Of a stretch of DNA of 64,000 nucleotides, positions 13,981 to 15,275 are shown in pieces. Origin of the DNA: Escherichia coli (GTDB lineage: Bacteria; Pseudomonadota; Gammaproteobacteria; Enterobacterales; Enterobacteriaceae); NCBI RefSeq assembly GCF_044324785.1, contig NZ_CP172127.1. The stretch is one strand, 5' to 3'. The translations under genes were made by a program, and so were the position numbers. The first letter of the stretch is position 1. The number at the start of each line of letters is the position of its first letter. Below the pieces are notes generated by a model. That model was not told the DNA's origin, searched no databases, and worked only from the letters and a program-made list of their open reading frames with translations.

Positions 13981-14250
13981 TTAGTTAGAGTTAATTAGCT
14001 TATCAATCTCTGCAAGAGATAAAGCTGTCACCTCTGCAACGTCTTCCCGAGACATCCCTTTATTCAGAAAACGTTGGGCGAATTCCTGTCTTACTTCCTG
14101 TCTTACTTCCTGTCTTACTTCCTGTCTTACTTCCTGTCTTACTTCCTGTCTTACTTCTTGATACGCTTCTTGATACGCCTTCTGAAATCCCTTCTCTTCA
14201 AACCACTGCGCTAACGTCTGCCTGGTTTCTCTCCGTGTCTTTATTTCCAT
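13981..14250 (-). CDS. stand-alone Rpn tail-domain protein (89 aa), paralog of the C-terminus of the adjacent rpnC-like gene
   Basis: ATG at 14250 with SD aaggga 5 nt upstream; MEIKTRRETRQTLAQWFEEKG...(QEVR)n...FAQRFLNKGMSREDVAEVTALSLAEIDKLINSN parallels the last ~70 aa of the 318-aa ORF upstream. Confidence 0.6.
   Translation of the reverse strand: MEIKTRRETRQTLAQWFEEKGFQKAYQEAYQEVRQEVRQEVRQEVRQEVRQEVRQEFAQRFLNKGMSREDVAEVTALSLAEIDKLINSN
14089..14184. repeat. in-frame 12-bp tandem repeat (about 6 units of tcttacttcctg plus degenerate units)
   Basis: Direct reading of sequence; encodes (QEVR)n on minus strand inside the tail ORF. Confidence 0.9.
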
Positions 14251-14318
14251 ATGTTCCCTTAATTATCTGGTCAGTTAACAATAACAATTATCTGGCTATA
14301 ACTGATAATACAGACAAC

Positions 14319-15275
14319 TTAGTTAATCAGTTTATCAATCTCAGCAAGAGGTAAATTTGCCATCTCTGCAACGTCTTCCCGAGACATTCCTTTACTCAGA
14401 AGACGCTGGGCGAATTCCTGACTTACTTCCTGTGTTACTTCCTGTATTACCTCTTGTCTTACCTCTTGTCTTACCTCCTGTCTTCCTTCCTGTCTTCCTT
14501 CCTGTCTTCCTTCCTGTCTTCCCCTCTCTTCAAACCACTGCGCCAGCGTCATCATAGACTCCCCTCCCGTTTCCCTGTCTCTCACCACACCATAAAACAA
14601 ATCCGCTTGTTCAGTATGACCGCGTTGCAGCATATAGTTTTGCATGGCAACTAACTGACTTCCGCTAGTGTACCCTTCGTCAATCAGCGTGACCAGTTGC
14701 TCCAGCAATAACATTAAGTCGCGCTGGCGAATATGCTTTTGCAGTAGTTCGAGAATCGCAATCCGCCGATGTTGCATGATTTCGTCATCCGGTGTGATGG
14801 TGATATCCACCAGCGGGAAAGGGTTGTTGTAAACGCGTCGCGCCAGCTCCGGCGAGTAAAACATATCAAACCAGCACATTGAGAGCGGATAAGGTGTGGC
14901 CTCGCCCTGATAAAACAGAATCGGCACCACCAGCGGCAGCTTATCGTGATCCGCCTCCAGATGCCGATGCATGGCGGCAATAGAATAACGCATCATGCGA
15001 AAGGTCATTTTCTTATCCGGCTTGCTTTGATGTTCAATCACCACATGCAAATAACCGGGATTGCCCTGCATTTGCACGGAATAGAGCACGTCAGTGCTGT
15101 GTCCTTTCAGGCTTTCTTCAATAAAACTCCCCGACTCAAGATGCAGCGTGTCGAGGTCACACAGTTCGCGTAGCTCCGCTGGCAAATGGATATCCAGAAA
15201 GTCGCGAGCCGTTTCCGCGTGCATTAAAAATTGTTTAAACACCGCATCATGCGGTGTGGTACTCGGTGCATCCAT
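14319..15275 (-). CDS. rpnC: Rpn-family (YhgA-like, PD-(D/E)XK) recombination-promoting nuclease, RpnC/YadD-like
   Basis: MDAPSTTPHDAVFKQFLMHAETARDFLDIHLPAELRELCDLDTL... typical Rpn N-terminus; sits between panC and panD as yadD does in K-12; C-terminal tail with (RQEG/RQEV)n repeats. Confidence 0.8.
   Translation of the reverse strand: MDAPSTTPHDAVFKQFLMHAETARDFLDIHLPAELRELCDLDTLHLESGSFIEESLKGHSTDVLYSVQMQGNPGYLHVVIEHQSKPDKKMTFRMMRYSIAAMHRHLEADHDKLPLVVPILFYQGEATPYPLSMCWFDMFYSPELARRVYNNPFPLVDITITPDDEIMQHRRIAILELLQKHIRQRDLMLLLEQLVTLIDEGYTSGSQLVAMQNYMLQRGHTEQADLFYGVVRDRETGGESMMTLAQWFEERGRQEGRQEGRQEGRQEVRQEVRQEVIQEVTQEVSQEFAQRLLSKGMSREDVAEMANLPLAEIDKLIN
14412..14530. repeat. in-frame 12-bp tandem repeat (cttacttcctgt / cttccttcctgt units)
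   Basis: Direct reading; encodes RQEG/RQEV tetrapeptide repeats in the rpnC-like tail. Confidence 0.9.
14550..14569 (-). promoter_or_regulatory. internal Shine-Dalgarno (gggaggggag) plus in-frame ATG-ATG inside rpnC; candidate start of a tail-only small isoform
   Basis: Minus strand reads gggaggggagtctATGATGacgctggcgcagtgg; in frame with rpnC, would give a 78-aa product. Confidence 0.45.

Follow-up and report, generated by a model that had tools for sequence, protein, structure and literature searches.

Between panC and panD, the Escherichia coli contig NZ_CP172127.1 carries two neighbouring minus-strand reading frames, and each of them contains an array of 12-bp tandem repeats. The question raised by this locus is what the arrays encode, how and how fast their copy number changes, and whether the number of units matters to the proteins. 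The window referred to below is the whole stretch of 64,000 nucleotides that was analysed. The answer put forward here, with a probability of about 0.85 for the helix-length account as a whole, is that the arrays are the tetrapeptide repeats of the RpnC tail and of its stand-alone duplicate.

The framework for this answer is provided by Zhong et al. (PNAS 2023; PMC10400941), who reported that all five rpn genes of K-12 make a small protein, RpnS, from an internal start, and that this protein inhibits the nuclease toxin RpnL. The repeat tract, which varies between strains, forms part of the helix through which RpnS dimerises. In the crystal structure of RpnA_S, a three-helix dimer, the point of repeat insertion lies in the long first helix (PMC10400941). 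The same study described a second copy of rpnC_S, named rpnC_Ss, which some strains carry downstream of rpnC and which can be lost by deletion or fusion (PMC10400941). A commentary (PMC10400984) restated the hypervariable tetrad repeats and left their driver as an open question. A search of the literature collection consulted, for work that appeared after the 2023 paper and the commentary, found nothing further. The interpretation of the locus first reached from its sequence is supported by the present analysis but is not new, since Zhong et al. (PMC10400941) already describe the system.

The rpnC gene and its predicted internal start

The larger of the two reading frames and the elements within it are as follows.

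14319..15275, minus strand: rpnC (yadD), 318 aa, in which a YhgA-like PD-(D/E)XK nuclease domain at the N-terminus (toxin form: RpnC_L) precedes a C-terminal RpnS tail
14319..14555, minus strand: ORF of 78 aa inside rpnC, predicted to encode the intragenic antitoxin RpnC_S and starting with ATGATG at 14550..14555
14559..14568, minus strand: Shine-Dalgarno-like GGGAGGGGAG, read from the sequence, whose coordinates (14559 vs 14555) place it 3 nt upstream of that ATGATG

The gene is flanked by panC (13048..13899) and panD (15549..15929), both on the opposite strand, and the arrangement in MG1655 is alike. The RpnC protein matches Pfam PF04754 (YhgA-like putative transposase) over residues 7-207 with an E value of 1.6e-86, and TIGR01784 (Rpn family recombination-promoting nuclease) with a score of 283 bits, for which the cut-off is 52. 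Its identity to K-12 RpnC is 90%. A single 20-aa gap within the repeat block accounts for 20 of the 33 non-identical columns, and only six substitutions are found in the first 240 residues. By its position and its sequence, the 318-aa gene can be assigned as the ortholog of K-12 rpnC. PADLOC-DB v2 contained no model matching RpnC and no Rpn model, and gave noise matches only.

In K-12 rpnC, the translation of RpnC_S from the internal site has been demonstrated (PMC10400941). The internal ATGATG is predicted to yield RpnC_S in the window's allele as well. The pattern GGGAGGGGAG-N5-ATGATG (14550..14568) is present in all 27 related loci that were compared, with one substitution allowed in the Shine-Dalgarno part. 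The repeats start 11-13 residues past M241 in RpnC_S and at residue 20-22 in RpnC_Ss; a placement of the RpnS type, with repeats 8-20 residues after the start and in the first helix, was found.

The stand-alone duplicate

The smaller reading frame lies downstream of rpnC on the same strand.

13981..14250, minus strand: rpnC_Ss, 89 aa, a stand-alone copy of the RpnC tail that has a start codon of its own (TAAGGGAACATATG), matching TIGR01784 positions 193-273 (E 3.4e-8)

The match of the 89-aa protein to TIGR01784 is restricted to the last 80 positions of that model. At the DNA level the duplicate of the rpnC tail starts with the TLAQWFEE codons and continues for some 15 nt beyond the stop codon, and the 5' end of rpnC_Ss (MEIKTRRETRQ) is unrelated to rpnC. 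The start context of rpnC_Ss is kept in 18 loci. Elsewhere, RefSeq names the equivalent gene either 'RpnC/YadD family protein' or 'hypothetical protein'. A Pfam scan of the 89-aa protein gave a best E value of 0.013, which is noise, and no match to DUF4351 (PF14261), the family under which stand-alone RpnS genes are annotated; many close homologues of this protein carry a precomputed assignment to PF27070, a family absent from the Pfam version that was scanned. A consensus promoter and terminator scan of the minus strand revealed none for rpnC_S or rpnC_Ss, although a scan as simple as this one says nothing either way.

Anatomy of the two repeat arrays

Both arrays are coding and in frame on the minus strand. 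Tandem Repeats Finder, applied to 12000..17000, detected a period-12 array at 14083..14157 (6.2 copies, 100% matches), its continuation as 2.4 degenerate copies at 14154..14183, and a second period-12 array at 14415..14520 (8.8 copies, 90% matches). A direct period-12 scan gave perfect runs of 75 bp (14083..14157), 31 bp (14447..14477) and 47 bp (14476..14522). Taken in the phase tcttacttcctg from 14089, the first array comprises five perfect units plus a sixth that departs at a single position, for which the 'about 6 perfect units' of the sequence-only reading is a fair description. The 60-nt exact pattern of five units is expected 0.00 times, as judged from 100 dinucleotide-preserving shuffles of the window. 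In the 89-aa ORF (13981..14250) the unit AGA CAG GAA GTA is translated as RQEV. In the 318-aa ORF (14319..15275), AGA CAG GAA GGA gives RQEG and AGA CAA GAG GTA gives RQEV. The variable stretches of the two genes are composed as follows.

14412..14525, minus strand: variable stretch of the rpnC tail, 38 aa, consisting of RG, three RQEG (AGACAGGAAGGA), one RQEV (AGACAGGAGGTA), two RQEV (AGACAAGAGGTA), IQEV, TQEV and SQEF
14080..14193, minus strand: variable stretch of rpnC_Ss, 38 aa, consisting of KG, FQKA, YQEA, YQEV, five RQEV (identical AGACAGGAAGTA) and RQEF

On the coding strand, the stretch in the rpnC tail reads AGGGGA (AGACAGGAAGGA)x3 AGACAGGAGGTA (AGACAAGAGGTA)x2 ATACAGGAAGTA ACACAGGAAGTA AGTCAGGAATTC, in which AGACAGGAGGTA is a chimeric junction unit. 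That of rpnC_Ss reads AAGGGA TTTCAGAAGGCG TATCAAGAAGCG TATCAAGAAGTA (AGACAGGAAGTA)x5 AGACAGGAATTC. Because the RQEV codons differ between the rpnC tail and rpnC_Ss, the two arrays expanded separately, neither being copied from the other. The presence of in-frame 12-bp arrays in both tail copies, as originally claimed, is thus borne out by Tandem Repeats Finder, the period-12 scan and the translation, which agree with one another, and the coordinates and units proposed for them match the sequence.

Two further reading frames are open on the opposite strand.

14357..14557, plus strand: antisense ORF overlapping the well-supported rpnC
14454..14654, plus strand: antisense ORF overlapping the well-supported rpnC

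Every unit type is stop-free in all three plus-strand frames, and these ORFs are open because they consist of repeat units without stops in those frames. RefSeq annotates no plus-strand CDS at their positions in the 26 loci that were examined. On the grounds of the stop-free units, the overlap with rpnC and the lack of annotation in those 26 loci, both ORFs were rejected as genes and are considered, as already proposed from the sequence, by-products of the repeat.

Copy-number variation between strains

The locus is almost universal in the species. A megablast search with 13850..15330 located it in 5,424 of 5,426 complete E. coli genomes, and it spans ~1,062 to 1,445 bp in these genomes vs 1,481 bp in the window. 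The K-12-like single-gene form, with 1,080-1,081 bp, accounted for about half of the megablast rows in a sample taken at even intervals. The stand-alone-copy query was covered to at least 80% in 1,524 complete genomes, about 28%. Fusion or loss of the stand-alone copy was observed in AF34 and YL03.

A closer comparison included 27 related loci, from 25 complete E. coli genomes and two metagenome contigs, in which the variable stretch was measured from AQWFEE to the conserved A/V-Q/L-R-L/F-L motif. In the rpnC tail this stretch has 10, 14, 18, 26, 30, 34, 38 or 42 aa, and in rpnC_Ss 14, 16, 18, 20, 22, 26, 30, 34 or 38 aa. In about 60 stand-alone cluster representatives from a database of 5.8 billion protein clusters it has 6-26 aa. 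Within an allele family of the 27 loci, the differences in length are multiples of 4 aa (12 bp) and always in frame, and the units gained or lost are identical 12-mers. Stepwise variation between strains is a direct observation at this locus. Two earlier expectations have been confirmed by this comparison among E. coli genomes, namely that the tail is length-variable (10-42 aa in the rpnC tail, 14-38 aa in rpnC_Ss) and that, inside allele families, the copy number shifts in whole tetrapeptide steps without frameshift.

The clearest case is offered by the number of AGACAGGAAGTA units in rpnC_Ss, which forms a ladder from one to five.

AGACAGGAAGTA x1: K_EC180
AGACAGGAAGTA x2: MS1685 and VCSW7
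AGACAGGAAGTA x3: N3
AGACAGGAAGTA x4: metagenome contig L028
AGACAGGAAGTA x5: the window and metagenome contig L027

The flanks are near-identical across this ladder. Strain N3 is the only complete genome in which panB-panC is 99% identical to the window; the flanks of its rpnC_Ss are 100% and 98.5% identical to those of the window, and it has three units vs five. The rpnC tail varies in its RQEG and expandable RQEV units, with 3+2 in the window, 2+3 in PKF4, 1+4 in 135 and AF34, and 1+3 in 042 and S1-JOR-02-A. Three of the rpnC tail alleles have an equal total length and a shifted RQEG/RQEV boundary.

The window's own allele is rare. Its best 30 complete-genome matches to 13900..14320 span 385 bp vs the 421-bp query, and are thus shorter by 36 bp (three units); 385 bp is the length of the 2-copy allele of MS1685, which is one of those 30 matches. 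With 38 variable residues, the rpnC_Ss of the window is the longest in the samples, in which the maximum is otherwise 34, the five-unit contig L027 also having 38. The five-unit count was absent from all 5,426 complete genomes, L027 being the one metagenome contig to share it, and the exact five-unit pattern had no match among 100,044 GTDB species representatives. In these comparisons, the window represents a divergent Escherichia lineage with a rare, maximally expanded rpnC_Ss allele.

Rarity of this kind might also arise if the repeat count of the window were an artefact of the assembly. The window's exact RpnC and RpnC_Ss sequences are absent from a collection of 15 billion proteins and from the 5,426 complete genomes, which would fit such an error. 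The perfect tract is, however, just 75 bp long, below ordinary read length, both reading frames are intact, and a five-unit array is present in the independent metagenome contig L027 and a four-unit array in L028. An artefact is so improbable that it can practically be set aside, and the count is treated as a genuine allele.

Predicted helix and the meaning of its length

The 89-aa protein was modelled with AlphaFold2 from 36 aligned sequences, and the mean pLDDT is 82. A continuous helix through all the repeats is predicted, running over residues 4-63 and followed by helices at residues 68-75 and 79-86. Foldseek comparison of the model with the PDB returned E. coli RpnA-S (7TH0) as the top match, with a TM score of 0.69 (target-normalised) over 41/46 residues and an E value of 1.2. 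For a domain so small, a fold match to 7TH0 with E = 1.2 is not significant. Searches of the PDB by sequence, using phmmer with the protein and hmmsearch with the 36-sequence profile, did not reach 7TH0. The top PDB match by sequence was a designed 'CAP repeat' protein, which fits the helix-turn-helix-like end.

In the account proposed here, both arrays specify the tetrapeptide repeats within the long first helix of RpnS. One copy is the tail at the C-terminus of the toxin RpnC_L, and the same DNA would yield the intragenic antitoxin RpnC_S via the internal start; the other copy is the stand-alone duplicate gene rpnC_Ss. The copy number shifts one 12-bp unit at a time, inside the runs of identical units, and each step makes the predicted helix four residues longer or shorter. 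The length of the helix would then set which RpnS pairs with and neutralises which RpnL, as indicated by the published RpnC experiment. In that experiment, the addition of one repeat to RpnC_S or to RpnC_LS abolished neutralisation, and its addition to both restored it (PMC10400941). The antitoxin function of the window's RpnC_S and RpnC_Ss, and the specificity of their length, may be assumed from this literature by analogy. The idea that the tail is a variable module at a protein-protein interface, which had been suggested from the sequence, agrees well with the position of the repeats in the dimerisation helix and with the effect of one added repeat (PMC10400941); as regards its cause, selection may be inferred.

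A particular feature of the window is that the rpnC tail and rpnC_Ss both have 38 variable residues. Equal lengths occur in one of 20 loci, the window itself, and random re-pairing gives a mean of 1.0 (P = 0.67); the two lengths show no positive correlation (r = -0.31). In L027, the same 38-aa rpnC_Ss is found beside an rpnC tail of 10 aa. The 38/38 equality is treated as a coincidence, since chance alone would give one in 20 and L027 combines a 38-aa copy with a 10-aa tail. A general matching of length between the copies was rejected for the same two observations. It is also conceivable that rpnC_Ss has expanded to match the RpnC tail and could act as a second, independently expressed antitoxin of RpnC_L, or as a 'length key' against a different or incoming RpnC allele. 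If the same-number rule holds, the 38-aa RpnC_Ss could pair with RpnC_L. Such a role is quite improbable. The data neither require nor favour a reading of rpnC_Ss as second antitoxin or 'length key'.

The variation in length might alternatively reflect the neutral drift of a microsatellite, in which the helix tolerates any length and the observed spread is a by-product of slippage, with neither selection nor a specificity code. The ladder from one to five units on near-identical flanks fits this possibility, as do the unmatched lengths of rpnC_Ss and the neighbouring rpnC tail (1/20 equal, 1.0 expected, P = 0.67, r = -0.31) and the annotation of rpnC_Ss as a pseudogene in two strains. However, neutral drift would not explain why a single added repeat abolishes the neutralisation between RpnC_S and RpnC_L and a matching change in both restores it, nor the similar 4-aa repeat variation in the Rpn tails of distant phyla (PMC10400941). 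The length is, moreover, always in frame and the predicted helix is uninterrupted. Neutral drift has thus a small chance of being the right explanation, and the helix-length account is preferred.

Tempo and mechanism of repeat change

At least 30 independent isolates have an rpnC_Ss of the same length; their sources are chickens, dogs, mink, humans, a lake and seawater. Seven genomes of pig ETEC share another length, and a single one is found in all the K-12-like loci of the spread sample. Since at least 30 isolates and all the sampled K-12-like loci share their counts, the arrays appear to change on the scale of lineages rather than of cultures, within the limits of the present data. The same comparisons show that the arrays have remained stable over long evolutionary periods. 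The tail had been described from the sequence as 'slippage-prone, length-variable'; the variability between strains is upheld, and 'slippage-prone' should be softened, at least 30 isolates sharing one count.

Tandem repeats in E. coli rearrange independently of RecA by replication slippage, and a perfect tandem array of 75 bp suits that process. The locus might therefore be regarded as a fast contingency locus of the phase-variation type, which would switch frequently within a single culture and give rise to mixed populations. The unit, however, is a multiple of three and provides no on/off switch by frameshift. Every allele observed differs by multiples of 12 bp, and no repeat change that shifts the frame or the spacing of a promoter, as in contingency loci, was found. 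The single lengths shared by the at least 30 isolates, by the seven pig ETEC genomes and by the K-12-like loci argue in the same direction, and a fast contingency locus is very improbable.

Under the helix-length account, units were most likely gained and lost by replication slippage or by unequal exchange between identical 12-mers, and we infer slippage as the mechanism. The ladder of units on near-identical flanks fits slippage, unequal recombination and gene conversion alike. A shifted RQEG/RQEV boundary at equal length would require either two steps of slippage or a single conversion. Zhong et al. called the mechanism of repeat change an open question, suspected diversifying selection, and raised the possibility that RpnC_L itself promotes the expansion (PMC10400941). 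Diversifying selection may likewise be the driver in the locus described here.

Comparison with known systems and significance

The closest relative of the locus is the E. coli RpnC_L/RpnC_S system with rpnC_Ss (PMC10400941), which involves the same gene, the same panC-panD locus, the internal start, the dodecamer repeats in the first helix and the downstream copy. Compared with K-12 RpnC, only the allele differs, the units being RQEG/RQEV and YQEA/RQEV here and of the KGIE type in K-12. A similar case in K-12 is the pair formed by rpnE and ypaA (RpnE_Ss), which is likewise a duplicate of an Rpn tail just downstream of its parent, and whose protein has been detected by tagging (PMC10400941). 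RpnE_Ss and RpnC_Ss nevertheless go back to independent duplications of different paralogues. In the published phylogeny, RpnC_Ss groups with RpnC_S, apart from RpnE_Ss (PMC10400941).

A precedent cited in the same study (PMC10400941) is that of the TAEL repeats of HsdS in EcoR124I and EcoR124II, where the in-frame gain of a four-aa repeat in a helical spacer likewise alters specificity. In HsdS, the length of the helix spaces the DNA recognition sequence, whereas in RpnC it affects the pairing of antitoxin and toxin, and the two families are unrelated. The contingency loci of Haemophilus, Neisseria and Campylobacter are likewise made of short tandem repeats in coding sequence with strain-variable counts. 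Their repeats are homopolymers or have a unit length not divisible by three, and expression of these genes is frequently switched on and off; in contrast, rpnC has units of 12 bp that remain in frame and counts that are common to many isolates.

The window itself adds little to the published account, contributing one more allele and a clean ladder from one to five units, and opens no new question. The ladder provides modest comparative support for the stepwise gain and loss of units in situ, and is the pattern to be expected of such a process, the mechanism of which was left open by the authors of the 2023 study. The wider meaning of the locus for the family lies in the dodecamer repeat as a length code for the fit between an antitoxin and a nuclease toxin in a widespread anti-phage system, as published in 2023 for rpnC.

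Allelic structure of the rpnC locus

The rpnC gene of the window lies between panC and panD, and its repeat-bearing tail is duplicated in a small neighbouring gene. The features concerned are:
12242..13899, panB-panC
13981..14250 (-), rpnC_Ss, the stand-alone copy of the tail (89 aa); variable stretch 14080..14193
14319..15275 (-), rpnC (yadD), YhgA-like nuclease; variable stretch 14412..14525

When 13981..15275 was compared with annotated E. coli loci (L001-L026), the closest relative changed segment by segment. The C-terminus of the stand-alone copy is 100% identical to those of strains 401656, VCSW7, and N3, the rpnC tail shares 99% identity with MS1685 and VCSW7, and the N-terminal part of rpnC is 98.5% identical to that of K_EC180. 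Such a mosaic locus indicates that recombination among alleles has acted on top of changes in repeat number.

The boundary between RQEG and RQEV units in the rpnC tail also varies in position. In three alleles of equal total length (38 aa), three RQEG units are followed by two expandable RQEV units in the window (3+2, at 14412..14525), with 2+3 in PKF4 (L021) and 1+4 in 135 and AF34 (L022 and L010). Each of these alleles carries a single chimeric junction unit, AGACAGGAGGTA, of which the first half is RQEG-type and the second half RQEV-type. Shifting the boundary at constant length needs either two compensating slippage steps or one conversion event.

Strains AF34 and YL03 (L010 and L012) have only one gene at the locus, and their rpnC ends in the C-terminus that otherwise characterises the stand-alone copy (…MATLSLTEVDKLINSN). 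These genes are fusions that arose when a deletion joined one tail copy to the other, a class (rpnC joined to the stand-alone copy) already mentioned by Zhong et al. (PNAS 2023, PMC10400941).

Flanking lineage and degeneration

Among 5,440 E. coli records, panB-panC of the window shows only 90-95% identity to 4,729 and reaches 99.0% with one genome alone, that of strain N3 (NZ_CP031609.1). The window thus stems either from an Escherichia lineage that has diverged or from a region with a history of strong recombination, and not from a typical E. coli.

The locus degenerates in some strains. An IS2 element interrupts rpnC in F8 (L020), and the stand-alone copy is an annotated pseudogene lacking its N-terminus in L26 and K_EC180 (L009 and L024). 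PKF4 (NZ_CP156662.1) carries a site-specific integrase gene with a frameshift beside the stand-alone copy, at the usual place of panC, and the same record holds a second matching place besides L021; together these suggest that this junction has taken up an island or been rearranged.

Codon usage in the repeats

On the minus strand of both variable stretches, the rare arginine codon AGA opens nearly all repeat units. AGA or AGG accounts for 8 of the 89 codons of rpnC_Ss and occurs seven times within rpnC codons 251 to 273, and several units contain the Shine-Dalgarno-like motifs GGAGG or AGGAAG. Additional repeat units would bring more rare codons and more Shine-Dalgarno-like motifs into the antitoxin message.
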